Part shown: positions 37,298 through 43,432 of the stretch, piece after piece
Layout of the letters: each line of letters starts with the position of its first letter
Position numbering within the stretch: position 1 is the stretch's first letter
Assembly (NCBI GenBank): GCA_024403115.1
Contig: JAKSSL010000003.1
Location: forward strand, 8,031-72,030
DNA: 64,000 bases
Direction of reading: 5' to 3'
Source: Clostridia bacterium
Lineage (GTDB): Bacteria; Bacillota; Clostridia; Peptostreptococcales; Anaerovoracaceae
Program-made: the position numbers and the translations under genes
The notes under the pieces: generated by a model
What the model was told of the DNA's origin: nothing
Seen by the model: only the letters and a program-made list of their open reading frames with translations
Database searches by the model: none

Positions 37298-38677
37298 ATG
37301 TTGAGATTTTATATAGCCCTTTGGGCTGCGAAGTTATTTTACTTCATTAACAAGTTAATAGGCAGAGCAAGGGACGACAGACCCGGTTTGCTCGCTTTCA
37401 AAATATGCCCTGATTTCCTAGCGAGAATTGGCAAGCCAAAGCTGATGATTACAATCACAGGAACAAATGGTAAGACTACCACTTCGGCTTTGATCAACTC
37501 ATATTTGAAGGAACAAGGCCTAAGAGTTAGCTTTAATGATTGGGGTGCAAATTTACACGCTGGTTACTGCTTGAATTTAATGCGTTGCGTTAATATTTTC
37601 AACAAGGTGACTAAGATGGATGCCAGCGTTCTTGAGGCAGACGAGAAAACTTTGGCTCATACTATGGGTATGATTAAACCTCACTATGTGTTGGTTACAA
37701 ACATTTCAAAGGATTCTCTTCGCAGAAACGGCCATCCTGAATACATCTTCGACTGTGTAGAAAAATGCTTTGAAAAGCTGGGAGCAGACACTACAGCTAT
37801 TCTAAATGCCAACGATCCTATTTCTTCAGAGCTTGCAAGAAATACAGGTGCAAAGAGAGTCTTCTATGGCATGGACGACATAGGCTCCAATCCTTTTGAA
37901 AACATGGTCAAAGATATAGCTGTTTGCCCTAGATGCGGCGGAGAGCTTAAATACAATTACAGACAATATAGACATATAGGTGATTATTATTGCGCAGACT
38001 GTGATTTTAAGACCAAAGATGCAAAGTTCTATGCTACAAAAGTGGATTTAAAAGCTAGAACTATGGACATATTAGAAGACGGCGAGACTACTACTTATCC
38101 ACTTATTTCTGAAACTATTTTCAACGCTTTTAATGTATTATCAGCGGCAGCCGCTTTAAGAACTATGGGTTATGAGAAGGCTTCTCTGGCTGAGTTCTTT
38201 GAAAGACAAAAGGTAACAGAAATAAGAGAAACATGTGTAAAATACAAGGGCAAGGAGTTCCACACTTATGGAGCTAAGAGCCAAAATGTTTCGGCGGCAA
38301 GTACAGTATTTGAATATATGGCTAAGGAAAAGTCAGATAAAATCGTGGTACTTTGTATGGATGAAGTTCAAGACAAAAACCATCCAACAGAGACTTTAAC
38401 ATGGCTTTATGAAACTGATTTCGAATTCCTGAACAGCCCTAATATTAAACAAATTGTCGTTGCAGGTCACATGTACTTAAACCACAGGCTTCGCTTAATG
38501 CTTGCAGGAGTTGATCCAAATAAGATTGCGGCTTGTGAAGATGAGAGCAAGGTGGCTGACTTAGTTGATTTCAGCCAAGATTTCGAAAAGCTGTATGTTT
38601 TATTCGAGATCGACTATGTTACTAAGGGAAGAAACTGGCGTGATGCCATTGTTGAAAAAGCAAAGGAGGTAATGTAA
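37298..38677 (+). CDS. MurT-like Mur-ligase-family protein, paralog 1 (central ligase domain + Cys4 zinc ribbon + DUF1727-type C-terminus)
   Basis: P-loop GTNGKTTTS, LEADEKT, ILNANDP, zinc ribbon CPRCGG..(17)..CADC. No MurC-F N-terminal UDP-binding domain. The N-terminal helix resembles staphylococcal MurT. Followed by a GatD-like gene with a TAATG overlap. Confidence 0.8.
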   Translation: MLRFYIALWAAKLFYFINKLIGRARDDRPGLLAFKICPDFLARIGKPKLMITITGTNGKTTTSALINSYLKEQGLRVSFNDWGANLHAGYCLNLMRCVNIFNKVTKMDASVLEADEKTLAHTMGMIKPHYVLVTNISKDSLRRNGHPEYIFDCVEKCFEKLGADTTAILNANDPISSELARNTGAKRVFYGMDDIGSNPFENMVKDIAVCPRCGGELKYNYRQYRHIGDYYCADCDFKTKDAKFYATKVDLKARTMDILEDGETTTYPLISETIFNAFNVLSAAAALRTMGYEKASLAEFFERQKVTEIRETCVKYKGKEFHTYGAKSQNVSAASTVFEYMAKEKSDKIVVLCMDEVQDKNHPTETLTWLYETDFEFLNSPNIKQIVVAGHMYLNHRLRLMLAGVDPNKIAACEDESKVADLVDFSQDFEKLYVLFEIDYVTKGRNWRDAIVEKAKEVM

Positions 38678-39399
38678 TGAAAGTGGTAGAAAACTTATTT
38701 CCTGAGCTTTGCAATATATACGGAGAAAGCTACAGCGTTGAATATCTAAGCAGATGCAATGGAGATATCAAGCTGGTTCAAACCAATCACAAAGACGTTC
38801 CTGCCTTTGTTACAGAGGATGTGGATATGGTTTATCTAGGTTGCAGCTCCGAGAGAAAACAGGAACAAATTATTGAGATTTTAAAACCTTACAAGGCAAG
38901 AATTAAGGAATTAATTGACAAAGGAACTATATTCCTTGCAACAGGAAATGCCATTGAGGTTTTTGGTAAAAGTATTAAGGATGAGGATCGTGTTATTGAA
39001 GCTTTAGGCTTATTTGAATTTGATTCGGTAAGATATATGGAAGCTGAAAGACACAATTCTCAATATGTTGGAAGTTTTAAGGCAGACAATGGACCAATAA
39101 CAATGTTGGGACATAGAAGCCAATTCAGTTTCGCATATGGTGATTTTGAAAACTTCCCACATTGGTTGGACATTGAAATTGGTATAGGTATGAATAAGGA
39201 GACAAAGAGAGAAGGCATACACTACAACAACTTCTTTGCCACATATTCACTAGGACCATGTCTAATCATGAATCCGCTTTTCGCAAAATATCTATTAAGA
39301 TTAATGGATATAGATGATAGTCTATTATTTGAAAATGAGATTATGGAAGCTTATGAATACAGAAAACACGAGCTTCGTGAAAATCTAGCAAATAGCTAA
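38677..39399 (+). CDS. GatD-like CobB/CobQ-type glutamine amidotransferase-fold protein, paralog 1, without the catalytic Cys/His
   Basis: Aligns by eye to GatD through LATGNAIEVFG (canonical ..ICGGYQ.LG) and REGIHYNNFFATYSLGP (canonical EGIHY..L.GTYLHGP). The nucleophile Cys and the His are both absent. Confidence 0.75.
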   Translation: MKVVENLFPELCNIYGESYSVEYLSRCNGDIKLVQTNHKDVPAFVTEDVDMVYLGCSSERKQEQIIEILKPYKARIKELIDKGTIFLATGNAIEVFGKSIKDEDRVIEALGLFEFDSVRYMEAERHNSQYVGSFKADNGPITMLGHRSQFSFAYGDFENFPHWLDIEIGIGMNKETKREGIHYNNFFATYSLGPCLIMNPLFAKYLLRLMDIDDSLLFENEIMEAYEYRKHELRENLANS

Positions 39400-39461
39400 A
39401 TTCACAAAAACAACATATTTTCATGGTAGAATAAATAAAAAATTGTCAGAAAGGAGGGCAC

Positions 39462-40205
39462 ATGGTTAGAAAAACTAAGATACTTATGGCGTTAATCGCA
39501 GCGCTTTTAGTAGTAATTGCAGTGATTTCTATACTGTTTATTGACACTAAAAACCTATTAGAAGAAGCGCAAGCGGCAAATGCGGCATACGCTAAAACTG
39601 CGGTTAAAACTCAAAAGAAAATTGAGAAAAAGCAGGCTAAAATCGATGACGTTAAAGATAACTTGGACACTGTAAAGGACAAGAATAAGGACCTTAAGAG
39701 TGAAGTTAAGTCTTTGAAAAAAGCCAATGCTAGATTAGAAAAACAAATTGGAAAAGCAAAGGATGCTCAATATAAAGCCGAAGTTGAATTAAAAAAATAC
39801 AAGCAGAGGAAGAGTAAAATCGACAATGTAATTAACCTCGCAAAAAGTAAGCTTGGCTGCAGATATGTTCACGGCCGTTGTGGCCCATACTATTTTGACT
39901 GTCAAGGCTTCGCATGGTATGTATACCACAATACTGTAGGCTGTATTACAACTGGAGGCTGTCATAAACAATTCAATTCTGTTTCCTATGGTTATGTTTC
40001 GAATAATTTAAGTGATGCCAAAAGAGGAGATTTAATATATTTCCTTAAAGGCAGTTATTATTCTCATGTAGCCCTATATATTGGAGGCGGAAAGATTATT
40101 CACGCAACTACTGGTGGCGGATATCATAGGGTTGTAATTACTTCAATTCCTAGATCATGGGCATCATCATTTAAGGTAGTAAGGCCGATTCCAAATGTAA
40201 AATAA
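39462..40205 (+). CDS. Membrane-anchored coiled-coil NlpC/P60 family cell-wall endopeptidase
   Basis: N-terminal TM helix, about 100-aa Lys/Glu-rich coiled coil, C-terminal NlpC/P60 domain with catalytic Cys (YFDCQGF) and His (YSHVALYIGGGKIIHA). Confidence 0.85.
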   Translation: MVRKTKILMALIAALLVVIAVISILFIDTKNLLEEAQAANAAYAKTAVKTQKKIEKKQAKIDDVKDNLDTVKDKNKDLKSEVKSLKKANARLEKQIGKAKDAQYKAEVELKKYKQRKSKIDNVINLAKSKLGCRYVHGRCGPYYFDCQGFAWYVYHNTVGCITTGGCHKQFNSVSYGYVSNNLSDAKRGDLIYFLKGSYYSHVALYIGGGKIIHATTGGGYHRVVITSIPRSWASSFKVVRPIPNVK

Positions 40206-40215
40206 TGGAGATAAA

Positions 40216-41217
40216 ATGACAAAATTAACTTTTATATTAAGAAAATTAACAGATACAAATTATAAGGCAATTTTTAAAACAGCTTCAGATATTGCAAAGA
40301 TTACAGGCAAGAGCAAATTAGCTATTTTAAAGGATATGGCTGATTGCACTGCCAAATATGGTTCAGGCTACGTTGATTACAAAGACTTTAGAATGTACGA
40401 ATTAAGCCCTGAAAAGAGAGCTGAAATTCTTACAATCACAAAGAACAACGAATTGGTCAGAACTTTGAATCAAGCGGAATACAGAGACTTTTTCGAGGAT
40501 AAAGAAAAATTCAACAGAAAGTTCTCCAAGTATCTTCACAGAGAGTGGATGATAATAAATGGAGAAAACTTTGAGGAGTTTAAGGCTTTCGTAGACGGCA
40601 AGCCAGCCGTTATTGTAAAACCTTTGGGCCTATCATGTGGTAAGGGTATTGAAAAGGTTTACCCTGATCAAGAGAAGGACCTTAAGGCAACTTACGACGA
40701 GCTTTATGCTCACAACTGTATATTAGTTGAAGAGCTTGCAAAGCAATGCGACGAAATGAGCGCTTTCTGCACAACTTCAATCAATACAGTTAGATTGGTA
40801 TCAGTAATCACAAATTCTGGAGAGCCTAAGCTTTGCGCTGGCGTATTTAGAATGGGTAGAGAAGGTGCATATGTAGATAATTTCAATCACGGTGGCATAG
40901 GCGCTAATGTTGATGTTTGGAAAGGCGAAACAGCAACAGACGGCTATGACAAGGATAGAAACATCTACGAGTACACTCCAGTAACAAATCAAAAGCTTAA
41001 AGGCTTCAAAATTCCTCAATGGGAAGCTTGCGAAGCTATGGTTAAGGAAGCCGCAATGGTTGTTCCTCAAGTAAGATATGTTGCATGGGATGTTTGCATA
41101 GCTCCAGAGGGCCCATTGCTAATCGAAGGAAACAGTTATCCAGGCCAAGATTTGTCTCAATATCCTGAGTTGGGACTTGGAACTTACAAAGCGATTACAG
41201 ATGTTTTAAACAGTTGA
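40216..41217 (+). CDS. ATP-grasp ligase, 'sugar-transfer associated' (ATPgrasp_ST-like) family
   Basis: VIVKPLGLSCGKGI, VEE, NFNHGGIGANVD and WDVCIAPEGPLLIEGN match the ATP-grasp core of the alpha-L-glutamate-ligase-related group. Confidence 0.7.
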   Translation: MTKLTFILRKLTDTNYKAIFKTASDIAKITGKSKLAILKDMADCTAKYGSGYVDYKDFRMYELSPEKRAEILTITKNNELVRTLNQAEYRDFFEDKEKFNRKFSKYLHREWMIINGENFEEFKAFVDGKPAVIVKPLGLSCGKGIEKVYPDQEKDLKATYDELYAHNCILVEELAKQCDEMSAFCTTSINTVRLVSVITNSGEPKLCAGVFRMGREGAYVDNFNHGGIGANVDVWKGETATDGYDKDRNIYEYTPVTNQKLKGFKIPQWEACEAMVKEAAMVVPQVRYVAWDVCIAPEGPLLIEGNSYPGQDLSQYPELGLGTYKAITDVLNS

Positions 41218-41226
41218 TTTATAGGA

Positions 41227-41257
41227 AAGGACAAGCTTTAGACTTGTCCTTTTTTTA
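41227..41257 (+). terminator. Rho-independent terminator after the ATP-grasp gene
   Basis: AAGGACAAG-CTTTAGA-CTTGTCCTT hairpin followed by TTTTTT. Confidence 0.8.
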
Positions 41258-41277: not shown

Positions 41278-41286
41278 TGGTATAAT
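41278..41286 (+). promoter_or_regulatory. Extended -10 promoter element (TGGTATAAT) for the second MurT-like/GatD-like module
   Basis: TG-N-TATAAT at 41278-41286, about 33 nt upstream of ATG 41319. Confidence 0.5.
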
Positions 41287-41318
41287 TACTATGTATAGAT
41301 ATGAATAGGAGAATGACT

Positions 41319-42695
41319 ATGGGAAAGTTAAAATTTCTTGTAGCACACTGGGCTGCAAAGGCCTCAGTTGTAGCTTTAAAAATCACAAAACACAACGGAA
41401 CAAATTTTCCAGGAGAGCTTGCAATCAAGATCTGTCCTGACTTTTTGAAATACATAGATAAGCCTGAAACTATTATTGGAGTAACAGGAACAAACGGTAA
41501 GACTACTGTATGTAATTTGCTAATTGATATGTTCACTGCTGATGGCCAGGTGCCACTTAATAACAGAGCAGGTTCCAATATTAATTCGGGCATTGCAACA
41601 AGTCTAATTCACGGAGCTAATCTATTTGGAAAATGCAAGCACAACCTAGGAGTTTTGGAAATAGATGAAAGATCAGCTTTGAGGGTATTCCCTTATGTAA
41701 AGCCAAACTACTTGATCATTACAAACCTGTTTAGAGATTCCATGAAGCGTAATGCTAACACAGAATATATTGCTGACATTTTAAGCAAATACATTCCTAA
41801 GGAGACTAAATTAGTTCTAAATGCAGATGATTTAATCTCATCAAATGTTGCACCAGAAAACCCAAGAGTATATTTTGGAATCGATAAGATGGATAGTGAC
41901 ATAAAGGAATGCACAAACCTAATCAATGATATTAGAATTTGCCCAGTATGCCATAGCAAATTGGAGTATGAGTATTTGAGATATCACCACATTGGAAAAG
42001 CACATTGCGTTTCCTGTGACTTTAAATCTCCAGGATATGACTACTGTGCAAAGAATGTAAATATAGATGATATGACCATGGAAATAGTTGATAAGGACGG
42101 TCTAGGTAACTACCGACTAATCAGCAATGGCATTCATAATATTTATAATATGGTAACTGTTATTGCACTGTTCAGAGAGCTTGGATACAAGCACGGCATT
42201 ATAGAAAAGTTAATGAGCCAAACTTCTATAGTAAAGAGCAGATATAATGCAGTACCAGCAGGCAAGGTAAGAGTAATAAATCAAATGGCCAAGGAAAACA
42301 ATGCCCTTGGATCATCGAGAGCTTTTGACTTCGTGTCCAAGGAACCTAACGACAAGGAATTGATTTTGATGATGAACTGTCTAGGTGATGAGAAACACTG
42401 GTCAGAAAATACTTGCTGGCTATATGACTGCGACTTTGAATTTCTAAACGACGAAAAGATTAAGAAGATAATTGTTACAGGACCTAGATATAAGGACTAT
42501 ATCCTGAGACTTTTAATAGCTGGAGTTGATAGAGCAAAAATCGTGGACACTGCTCATGAAATTGATGCACCAGATTTGCTGGACTTCACTCCTGGGGAAG
42601 ATATTTATGTCTTCTTTGGAACAGATTCCCTGGCTCTTGGAAACAAGGTCCTTGCCAAAACAATTGACTTGGCAAAAGAAAGGGGTGATAAGTAA
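41319..42695 (+). CDS. MurT-like Mur-ligase-family protein, paralog 2
   Basis: GTNGKTTVC, LEIDERS, FRDSMKR (MurT has FRDQMDR), VLNADDL, zinc ribbon CPVCHS..(17)..CVSC, DUF1727-type C-terminus. ATG 41319 follows TAGGAGA; the track start is 41301. Confidence 0.8.
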   Translation: MGKLKFLVAHWAAKASVVALKITKHNGTNFPGELAIKICPDFLKYIDKPETIIGVTGTNGKTTVCNLLIDMFTADGQVPLNNRAGSNINSGIATSLIHGANLFGKCKHNLGVLEIDERSALRVFPYVKPNYLIITNLFRDSMKRNANTEYIADILSKYIPKETKLVLNADDLISSNVAPENPRVYFGIDKMDSDIKECTNLINDIRICPVCHSKLEYEYLRYHHIGKAHCVSCDFKSPGYDYCAKNVNIDDMTMEIVDKDGLGNYRLISNGIHNIYNMVTVIALFRELGYKHGIIEKLMSQTSIVKSRYNAVPAGKVRVINQMAKENNALGSSRAFDFVSKEPNDKELILMMNCLGDEKHWSENTCWLYDCDFEFLNDEKIKKIIVTGPRYKDYILRLLIAGVDRAKIVDTAHEIDAPDLLDFTPGEDIYVFFGTDSLALGNKVLAKTIDLAKERGDK

Positions 42696-43432
42696 TGAAA
42701 ATTGAAGTATTATTCCCTGAGATTTGCAATCTTTTTGGAGAACTAGCAAACATTAGATATTTGGAATCCAGCTTAAAGGAAAGCGGTGAGTTTTACGAAA
42801 TTACATACACTTCCTTGAAGGATGAACCTTTATTTGCCAGTGAAAAACCGGATTTAATCTACATGGGCGGAATGTCTGAGCATTCTCAAAGCCTTGTTGT
42901 AGACAAGCTTATGCCATATAGAGACAGAATTATTGACTTAATTAAGGACGACACGAATTTCCTTATCACATCAAATGCTTTGGAAATTTTCGGAGAAAGA
43001 ATCGAGTTTTGCGATGCTGACTACGAGGATATTAAAGGCCTTAGCATCTTCCCAACTGTAGCAAAGAATCAAATGTATAAAAGATTCAATTGCCTGTATT
43101 TGGGCAAGCTAGGTGATATGGAAATAGTAGGCTTTAAAAGCCAATTCGGTCATAGTTATTTGAATGGAGACAAGAACTATGAGGACCTATTTGAAACAAT
43201 AAAGGGAACAGGATTAAACCCTGAATATAAAAACGAGGGGATAAAGGTTAATGGCTTCTTGGCAACTTATGTTGTTGGACCTATCTTGGTGCTAAATCCT
43301 GATTTTACAAAGGCTTTAATGAAGAGGATGGGCGTAGGAGAACCAAAGCTGGCTTATGAAGAGGCAGCATACGAAAGCTACAATCAAAGGCTTAATGAAT
43401 ACAAGGAAGAAAATAGAGGCTTCTATTATTAG
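42695..43432 (+). CDS. GatD-like CobB/CobQ-type amidotransferase-fold protein, paralog 2, without the catalytic Cys/His
   Basis: LITSNALEIFG in place of the Cys elbow, and NEGIKVNGFLATYVVGP in place of the ..GTYLHGP His motif. TAATG overlap with the upstream ligase. Confidence 0.75.
   Translation: MKIEVLFPEICNLFGELANIRYLESSLKESGEFYEITYTSLKDEPLFASEKPDLIYMGGMSEHSQSLVVDKLMPYRDRIIDLIKDDTNFLITSNALEIFGERIEFCDADYEDIKGLSIFPTVAKNQMYKRFNCLYLGKLGDMEIVGFKSQFGHSYLNGDKNYEDLFETIKGTGLNPEYKNEGIKVNGFLATYVVGPILVLNPDFTKALMKRMGVGEPKLAYEEAAYESYNQRLNEYKEENRGFYY

Follow-up and report, generated by a model that had tools for sequence, protein, structure and literature searches.

We analysed a stretch of 64,000 nucleotides (nt), hereafter the window, from a Clostridia bacterium of the family Anaerovoracaceae (GenBank assembly GCA_024403115.1, contig JAKSSL010000003.1, positions 8,031 to 72,030 of the forward strand). 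It carries a gene for an ATP-grasp ligase of the ATPgrasp_ST family, flanked by two pairs of genes that each encode a MurT-like ligase and a GatD-like protein. We found that MurT-like cell-wall ligases have a conserved and as yet uncharacterised partner in this ATP-grasp gene, that both GatD-like proteins have lost the glutaminase Cys and His (hereafter glutaminase-dead, or dead), and that a gene for an NlpC/P60 cysteine peptidase directly before the ATP-grasp gene is a species-specific insertion. The reading that we favour, with a probability of roughly 0.55, is that the locus encodes ATP-dependent ligases that add amino acids, not ammonia, and that these amino acids form a branch or bridge on the stem peptide of the peptidoglycan.

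The ATP-grasp gene accompanies MurT-like and GatD-like genes across many genomes

We scanned one genome per species for relatives of the ATP-grasp protein, which gave 581 relatives, and read the best 80 of the 581 loci. All 12 orthologues with at least 43% identity adjoined a MurT-like/GatD-like pair; 11 lay directly 3' of the pair (with spacing that ranged from an overlap of 4 nt to a gap of 45 nt) and one (locus L010) directly 5' of it. A second MurT-like/GatD-like pair then followed in several related loci, as it does in the window. In a maximum-likelihood tree, the window protein fell within a 100/100 clade of 13 proteins, and all 13 have a MurT-like gene as neighbour. Of six proteins in a second clade, five were MurT-adjacent, among them those of three genomes of the same family, with the genes either in the order ATPgrasp-MurT-GatD or divergent. 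Adjacency is kept in three arrangements (MurT-GatD-ATPgrasp, ATPgrasp-MurT-GatD and divergent), and when it was placed on the tree as a label, it changed 3 times, against a mean of 17.6 for shuffled labels (0 of 500 shuffles were as low). In addition, the orthologues of the second MurT-like ligase in three same-family genomes lay directly 3' of a more distant ATPgrasp_ST gene.

The association was also present where the genes are unlinked. Each of the ten genomes with an unlinked ATP-grasp homologue carried exactly one MurT_C match, of the divergent type (56-83 bits; canonical MurT genes score 110-146 bits on MurT_C for comparison), and the partner GatD-like protein was without the catalytic Cys and His in 5 of the 5 loci examined. 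For 399 sampled genomes of the class, co-occurrence and not adjacency was then computed. An ATP-grasp match at E <= 1e-50 was present in 17 genomes, and among the matches listed, 15 of these had the divergent MurT type, two had none and none had the canonical type, while the background of the divergent type in the sample was about 11% by hand count. The tie between the ATP-grasp gene and the MurT-like/GatD-like genes, proposed in a preliminary description of this DNA from a single locus, thus holds across many genomes, in three arrangements and by co-occurrence when the genes are unlinked. Within three genes of more distant ATP-grasp homologues, we also found MurF, a MurA-type enzyme, SpoIID and a SpoVB/MurJ-like flippase. 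Cultivable carriers include Mobilibacterium timonense, with the order MurT1-GatD1-ATPgrasp, and Pseudoflavonifractor capillosus, in which the set is unlinked. A literature search on MurT together with ATP-grasp enzymes, and on the peptidoglycan type of the Anaerovoracaceae, found nothing relevant.

Layout of the locus

The reading frames for the NlpC/P60 protein (39462-40205, 247 amino acids (aa)) and the ATP-grasp protein (40216-41217, 333 aa) were both intact, with 10 nt between the stop codon of the former and the start of the latter. The motifs quoted for them beforehand (FDCQGF, SHVALYIGGGKIIHA, VKPLGLSCGKGI, NFNHGGIGANVD and WDVCIAPEGPLLIEGN) were all located. Re-reading of the open reading frames and Pfam matches upheld the coordinates, spacing, motifs and both family assignments of the preliminary description. 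The gene order is argS, MurT-like 1, GatD-like 1, NlpC/P60, ATP-grasp, terminator, MurT-like 2, GatD-like 2 and ribokinase, and the features are as follows.

37298-38677, + strand: MurT-like ligase 1, 459 aa, beginning 10 nt after argS (Pfam MurT_C and Mur_ligase_M)
38677-39399, + strand: GatD-like 1, 240 aa, glutaminase-dead by alignment with Staphylococcus aureus GatD
39424-39432, + strand: candidate extended -10 element TGgTAGAAT, read from the sequence
39462-40205, + strand: NlpC/P60 cysteine peptidase, predicted to be membrane-anchored with a long helix, 247 aa (Pfam NLPC_P60)
40216-41217, + strand: ATP-grasp ligase of the ATPgrasp_ST family, 333 aa (Pfam PF14397)
41223-41256, + strand: intrinsic terminator 3' of the ATP-grasp gene (13-bp stem and U-run)
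41278-41286, + strand: putative extended -10 element TGgTATAAT, 5' of MurT-like 2 (by match to the consensus)
41301-42695, + strand: MurT-like ligase 2, 464 aa (Pfam MurT_C and Mur_ligase_M)
42695-43432, + strand: GatD-like 2, 245 aa, glutaminase-dead by alignments with Streptococcus pneumoniae and S. aureus GatD

A strong terminator had been described after the ATP-grasp gene, and we found it there, with its stem at 41223-41255 and a folding energy of -14.4 kcal/mol (z = -3.7); none of 200 shuffled sequences folded as well. No terminator-like site was detected when the 62-nt gap between the GatD-like 1 and NlpC/P60 genes was scanned, in agreement with the earlier description. The same gap holds the element TGgTAGAAT, whose form is like that of TGgTATAAT 5' of MurT-like 2, and the NlpC/P60 and ATP-grasp genes may therefore have a separate promoter, with TGgTAGAAT as the candidate. 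A consensus promoter scan did not report this element because no good -35 hexamer lies 16-18 nt from it. Most genes of the window lie on one strand with short gaps between them. A cardiolipin-synthase-like phospholipase D gene was observed directly 5' of MurT-like 1 in nine related loci (L012, L014, L086 and six others), and in a same-genus genome (L118) it lies two or three genes 5' of the MurT-like gene.

Both GatD-like proteins lack the glutaminase Cys and His

For the lipid II isoglutaminyl synthase of S. aureus and S. pneumoniae, it is established that D-iso-Glu of lipid II has its alpha-carboxylate activated by MurT and then attacked by ammonia from GatD. The window pairs share the two-gene layout of this synthase (Protein Data Bank (PDB) 6GS2/7Q8E and 6FQB). 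Both MurT-like proteins aligned over their full length with S. aureus MurT (7Q8E/6GS2), MurT-like 1 at E = 6e-43 and MurT-like 2 at E = 4e-46, and both keep the MurT architecture, with the P-loop, the Mur ligase middle domain, the Cys4 ribbon (its cysteines aligned) and MurT_C. However, the active site of the amidotransferase subunit differs in both pairs. In GatD-like 1, C94 of S. aureus GatD is replaced by Gly (LATGNAIEVFG) and H189 by Leu (TYSLGP), and in GatD-like 2 Ser stands in place of the Cys (LITSNALEIFG) and Val in place of the His (TYVVGP). The Asp of MurT that completes the GatD triad is replaced by Thr or Asn, with Thr at the position of S. aureus D349 in MurT-like 1. All scores were far below the NCBIfam equivalog cut-offs: MurT-like 1 and 2 reached 162 and 185 bits against 800 for MurT, and the GatD-like proteins 53 and 62 bits against 450 for GatD. 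The window further differs from the known synthase in having an ATP-grasp ligase as a conserved third component, and in having two pairs, whereas most bacteria have one MurT/GatD pair (PMC11915815).

Across the related loci, all 20 GatD-like genes were without both the Cys and the His; 18 read TGNA.E and two read TGNS.E in place of CGG(Y/F)Q. This uniformity marks a conserved remodelling of the active site rather than decay. As a control, the alignment did detect the normal motif in a canonical GatD (ICGGYQ/HGP) from the same order. A reading of the flanking pairs as amidotransferases proved wrong: since both GatD-like proteins lack the glutaminase Cys and His, the pairs cannot act in a glutamine-dependent way. 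No paper was found in a literature search on MurT-like/dead-GatD pairs or on their tie to an ATP-grasp enzyme.

The ATP-grasp protein is very likely an active ligase

The ATP-grasp protein matched Pfam ATPgrasp_ST (PF14397) at E = 8e-47 with 160.2 bits (cut-off 31.4) over residues 76-317. Its AlphaFold2 model, built from an alignment with 25 homologues, had a predicted local distance difference test score (pLDDT) of 93 and showed an all-helical domain in residues 1-110, with the remainder forming an ATP-grasp core. The best Foldseek matches of this model were RimK, the D-Ala-D-Ala ligase Ddl, GshB and L-amino-acid ligases (E = 1e-8 to 1e-6, 13-17% identity), with a probability of 1.00 for RimK, Ddl and GshB. 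Matches came from the fold comparison only: a sequence search of the PDB with the ATP-grasp profile gave none that was significant (top GshB, E = 0.26), and the NCBIfam scan gave TIGR02291 (RimK-related) at 35 bits against a cut-off of 314, with others weaker. Residues K135, E172, D292, E304 and N306 were invariant across the 25 homologues. We take K135 to be the ATP-binding lysine and, by the known E-x-N motif of ATP-grasp enzymes, the D...E-x-N residues to be metal ligands. Taken together, the conserved residues and the modelled fold make it very likely that the protein is an active ATP-dependent carboxylate-amine ligase.

RimK, a poly-alpha-L-glutamate ligase that adds an amino acid to a peptide carboxylate, is the closest solved structure. 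The two share the ATP-grasp core (Foldseek E = 1.2e-8, template-modelling score about 0.46-0.49), but the window protein has only 15-17% identity, another N-terminal domain and another genomic context. A second likeness is to Ddl and MurF, in that an ATP-grasp gene stands beside a Mur-family ligase gene and Ddl is among the best structural matches; the all-helical N-terminal 110 residues, however, are unlike the N-domain of Ddl. Canonical Ddl and MurF are both encoded in the genome. The ATPgrasp_ST family is named for its association with sugar-transfer genes. Neither the window nor the related loci had a glycosyltransferase gene in the conserved module, where the partners are MurT-like and GatD-like genes. 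A full-text literature search by the family name returned no paper, and no characterised member was found. Cj1438C was considered as such a member and was ruled out, as it belongs to the TupA-like family (PMC11800379).

Proposed ligation of amino acids to the stem peptide

From homology and gene neighbourhood, we infer a substrate, a site of ligation and a role for the dead GatD-like subunit. The conserved module consists of the ATP-grasp enzyme, a MurT-like ligase and a GatD-like subunit without the glutaminase Cys and His, and with two pairs around the ATP-grasp gene, the locus has three predicted ATP-dependent ligases. Each MurT-like ligase would activate a carboxylate of a peptidoglycan precursor, for which the alpha-carboxylate of D-iso-Glu, the substrate of MurT itself, is the prime candidate, and would couple an amino acid, in place of ammonia, to the activated carboxylate. 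The ligase looks intact, and an amino acid is the probable amine because the GatD-like proteins, although conserved, cannot split glutamine to supply ammonia. Their probable role is to bind or present the amine, and the ATP-grasp enzyme would add a further residue or, like Ddl in its service to MurF, make a dipeptide beforehand. In either case the stem peptide would gain a branch or bridge. Non-standard peptide chemistry in the peptidoglycan, which had been suggested beforehand, remains the best reading of the locus.

The archaeal MurT-like/pMurC pseudomurein ligases are MurT relatives without a functional GatD that are thought to add amino acids, and they are a precedent for this reading. The NCBIfam pMurC model matched the two MurT-like proteins of the window at E = 4e-25 and 2e-22, and PDB 6VR7 matched them at 1e-16 and 2e-19. 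Archaea that have only MurT-like proteins have no GatD (PMC11915815). The window proteins differ from these ligases in being bacterial, in keeping a dead GatD-like protein and in scoring nearer to bacterial MurT than to pMurC.

Several points weigh against amino-acid ligation at the stem peptide. There is no characterised member of ATPgrasp_ST or of the dead-GatD/MurT-like type, and the substrate is assigned only by homology and neighbourhood. One same-family genome (G016) has a MurT2/GatD2-type pair and no ATP-grasp match at E <= 1e-20, and two genomes of the class sample have an ATP-grasp homologue and, among the matches listed, no MurT_C match; the partnership is therefore frequent and not obligatory. 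The related genomes are also non-independent samples, and some of the peptidoglycan neighbours of the more distant homologues lie in housekeeping synteny blocks with tig and lon, where they may mean little. Lastly, the five other ATPgrasp_ST genes of the genome cluster with a TagF-like glycerophosphotransferase and a cytidylyltransferase, so that a glycopolymer substrate is possible.

These five genes bear on an alternative that we consider unlikely, in which the ligases act elsewhere, on the carboxylates of a teichoic-acid-like or capsular glycopolymer, on a cyanophycin-like or polyglutamate-like polyamide, or on a small metabolite. The sugar-transfer association behind the name ATPgrasp_ST would fit a glycopolymer. 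A characterised example from a sister family is the C-terminal domain of Cj1438 from Campylobacter jejuni, a TupA-like ATP-grasp enzyme that amidates capsular glucuronate (PMC11800379). It resembles the window protein as an ATP-grasp amidoligase acting on a surface polymer, but differs in its Pfam family, its fusion to a glycosyltransferase and its sugar-acid carboxylate acceptor. For a polyamide, cyanophycin synthetase CphA1 likewise joins an ATP-grasp and a Mur-type ligase, and the same two ligase superfamilies build branched amide linkages (PMC11915815); in the window, however, the genes are separate, the partner is MurT-like and not MurE/F-like, and there is no sign of a storage polymer. 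Three points argue against such other substrates: the Mur-type partners are of the MurT-like kind in particular, with MurT_C and the Cys4 ribbon, and align over their full length with the lipid II isoglutaminyl synthase; the conserved module neither contains nor adjoins a glycosyltransferase gene; and the related pair of Acetobacterium woodii adjoins glmM and glmS.

The rest of the genome shows ATP-grasp and Mur-type ligases together at another site. The genome is compact (1.08 Mb) and has 11 Mur-ligase-family genes and 6 ATPgrasp_ST genes, the usual number of Mur ligases being five or six. Besides MurC, MurD, MurE, MurF and FolC, it has four extra Mur-ligase-family genes, three on contig C4 and one on contig C5. 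The three on C4 score as MurF-like, below the MurF cut-off, and the two of them that lie 3' of three tandem ATPgrasp_ST genes carry BspA-type leucine-rich repeats. Here, as with Ddl and MurF, ATPgrasp_ST paralogues adjoin MurF-like paralogues, and together with the window locus these neighbours show that ATP-grasp and Mur-type ligases recur as a pair in this organism. We found no FemAB-type transferase in the genome.

The C4 cluster (positions 1-27679, about 28 kb, loci L138/L139) lies outside the window and is on one strand. It contains an M20 peptidase, a 979-aa protein with a C-terminal ATPgrasp_ST domain, TsaE/TsaB, two YkuD L,D-transpeptidases, an amino-acid permease, a 733-aa MurF-like ligase, two CHAP proteins, the TagF-like enzyme, the cytidylyltransferase, three ATPgrasp_ST genes in a row, the two fusions of MurF-like ligase and BspA-type repeats, another ATPgrasp_ST gene and an Fn3 protein. 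We also observed that MurE of the host (contig C47, 49967-51277, cut by the contig end) passes the equivalog model for the meso-diaminopimelate ligase, while its specificity motif reads TMVHLYGEE against T-(D/S)-D-N-P-(R/A) in other MurE enzymes. The motif is DNPA in A. woodii and DNPD in a same-order genome, and the same-genus genome gave no MurE match at E <= 1e-40. By this motif, the third stem residue of the host may be unusual. A likeness of the host MurE to that of A. woodii at the specificity motif was rejected, with VHLY here against DNPA.

The NlpC/P60 gene lies outside the conserved unit

The NlpC/P60 protein matched Pfam NLPC_P60 at E = 3.9e-14 over residues 133-220. Residues C147, H202 and H214 were invariant or nearly so among homologues and align with the catalytic triad of solved NlpC/P60 enzymes. 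Its best PDB match was a wall hydrolase of Clostridioides difficile (7CFL), and others were the catalytic domains of LytE (8I2D-8I2F) and CwlO (8WT3). The N-terminus is basic and is followed by a hydrophobic helix that looks like an uncleaved anchor, so the catalytic domain should face outward. AlphaFold2 predicted one continuous helix over residues 3-129, comprising the membrane segment and a long helix (pLDDT 49-87), and then a compact domain. Coiled-coil matches in Pfam were weak and generic. The start at 39462 is backed by an AGGAGG ribosome-binding site 5 nt before the ATG, which favours this longer form over the public gene call, which starts eight codons later (39486) and gives 239 aa. 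The C-terminal NlpC/P60 domain with Cys-His-His and the predicted long N-terminal helix before it are shared with D,L-endopeptidases of the CwlO/LytE/RipC type, but the window protein has the uncleaved-looking signal anchor in place of secretion, and PF24568, present in its more distant CwlO-like homologues, was undetected. We describe it as a putative cysteine peptidase of the D,L-endopeptidase type that is anchored in the membrane and faces outward; its tie to the ligases lies in its position and probably in a shared transcript.

It is the sole PF00877 match above the cut-off in the genome. An origin of the gene as a copy of another gene of this genome was rejected, as the only other match was weak and lay in a CHAP protein. 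The NlpC/P60 gene occurred in none of the 80 related loci and separates two genes, GatD-like 1 and ATP-grasp, that abut or overlap in relatives. Among 5.8 billion proteins there was no close homologue, the best having 38% identity over 43% of the length, and the nearest relatives stand alone in unrelated gene neighbourhoods. No match to the protein was found in the same-genus genome (G001). There, the genes pheT-zapA-mutS2-DUF523-argS are kept (L157, contig C58) and are followed by two radical-SAM genes and a TPR gene, with no ligase cassette; its single MurT-like gene lies elsewhere and is paired with a third dead-GatD type (VTGTS). Neither direct nor inverted repeats flank the NlpC/P60 gene, and no clear GC shift was seen. 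These results show that the gene is a species-specific insertion outside the conserved unit.

The preliminary description had cast the NlpC/P60 enzyme as a hydrolase coordinated with the ligases, and we consider it quite doubtful that it is a dedicated partner that cuts their own bond or substituent, with synthesis and remodelling co-regulated in one operon. Its gene sits inside the module, with GatD-like 1 on one side, the ATP-grasp gene 10 nt away on the other and no terminator preceding it, and the C4 ligase cluster likewise holds wall enzymes, namely the two CHAP proteins and the two L,D-transpeptidases. As the only NlpC/P60 enzyme of the genome, it must also cope with whatever peptide the ligases build. 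Nevertheless, the absence from 80 related loci and from the same-genus genome, the distant and isolated homologues and the candidate promoter 5' of the gene leave that role unsupported, and because the gene lies outside the conserved unit, a dedicated hydrolase for the same bond is conjecture. The protein is probably the general wall endopeptidase of the host.

The genome has ftsEX, with an extracellular domain in FtsX. On contig C34 (L155, 637-3273), ftsE and ftsX are followed by a gene for a coiled-coil M23 (LytM-type) peptidase with a signal peptide, which is a likely hydrolase under FtsEX control. This is a further difference from the CwlO/LytE/RipC enzymes, in that ftsEX here has a coiled-coil M23 peptidase of its own directly 3' of it, and a partnership of the NlpC/P60 protein with FtsEX as the default was rejected on this account.

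The insertion shows that unrelated genes can land at this locus, and the genome is very compact, with the window mostly on one strand with short gaps, but the idea that gene-order drift brought the ATP-grasp and NlpC/P60 genes there and that their adjacency is meaningless is highly improbable, and for the ATP-grasp gene already disfavoured, given the adjacency kept through three arrangements and two ATP-grasp clades (3 label changes against 17.6), the divergent MurT-like gene retained in 10 of 10 unlinked genomes and the 15 of 17 co-occurrences in the class sample, among the matches listed, against a background of about 11%.

A possible link to group-B peptidoglycan

In group-B peptidoglycan, the cross-link bridge is attached to the alpha-carboxyl of D-Glu. 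To our knowledge, no enzyme is known for this attachment, and a literature search on MurT and B-type peptidoglycan found none. We propose, tentatively and as a possibility well short of even odds, that MurT-like/dead-GatD pairs attach bridges to the alpha-carboxyl of D-Glu in group B, that further residues are added or pre-assembled by ATPgrasp_ST enzymes where a lineage has longer bridges, and that the window encodes a three-step pathway of this kind. The sole MurT relative of A. woodii is a MurT-like/dead-GatD pair near mnmA, glmM and glmS, and the murein of A. woodii is presumably of group B (literature of the 1970s). No ATPgrasp_ST partner was found in A. woodii at E <= 1e-40, which fits a one-residue bridge, and the dead-GatD type of A. 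woodii is common in Acetobacterium and Eubacterium genomes. A review assigns B2-alpha to the Eubacteriaceae (PMC11382707), and Ser, Orn and Lys are present in the wall of Eubacterium limosum (PMC4791908). The proposal is drawn from this one lineage only.

The A. woodii locus (L163, 2786000-2802000, minus strand) reads ion-channel-like gene, MurT-like, dead GatD-like (VTGTT/NTLGP), mnmA, glmM and glmS, and the annotation of its GatD-like product reads 'type 1 glutamine amidotransferase / CobQ-like'.

Implications

If the favoured reading is true, the locus represents a peptidoglycan-peptide ligation system of new design that is widespread in gut and rumen Clostridia and related Bacilli, where such genes currently carry the annotations "CobQ / type 1 glutamine amidotransferase", "Mur ligase family protein" and "sugar-transfer associated ATP-grasp". 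It would explain how residues can be added to stem-peptide carboxylates without tRNA-dependent Fem transferases, and the attachment of group-B cross-bridges to D-Glu would become directly testable. As the NlpC/P60 case shows, genes within an operon-like block may lie outside its pathway. Wall changes of the kind proposed here would affect which muropeptides are sensed by hosts and which bonds are open to lysins and endopeptidases.

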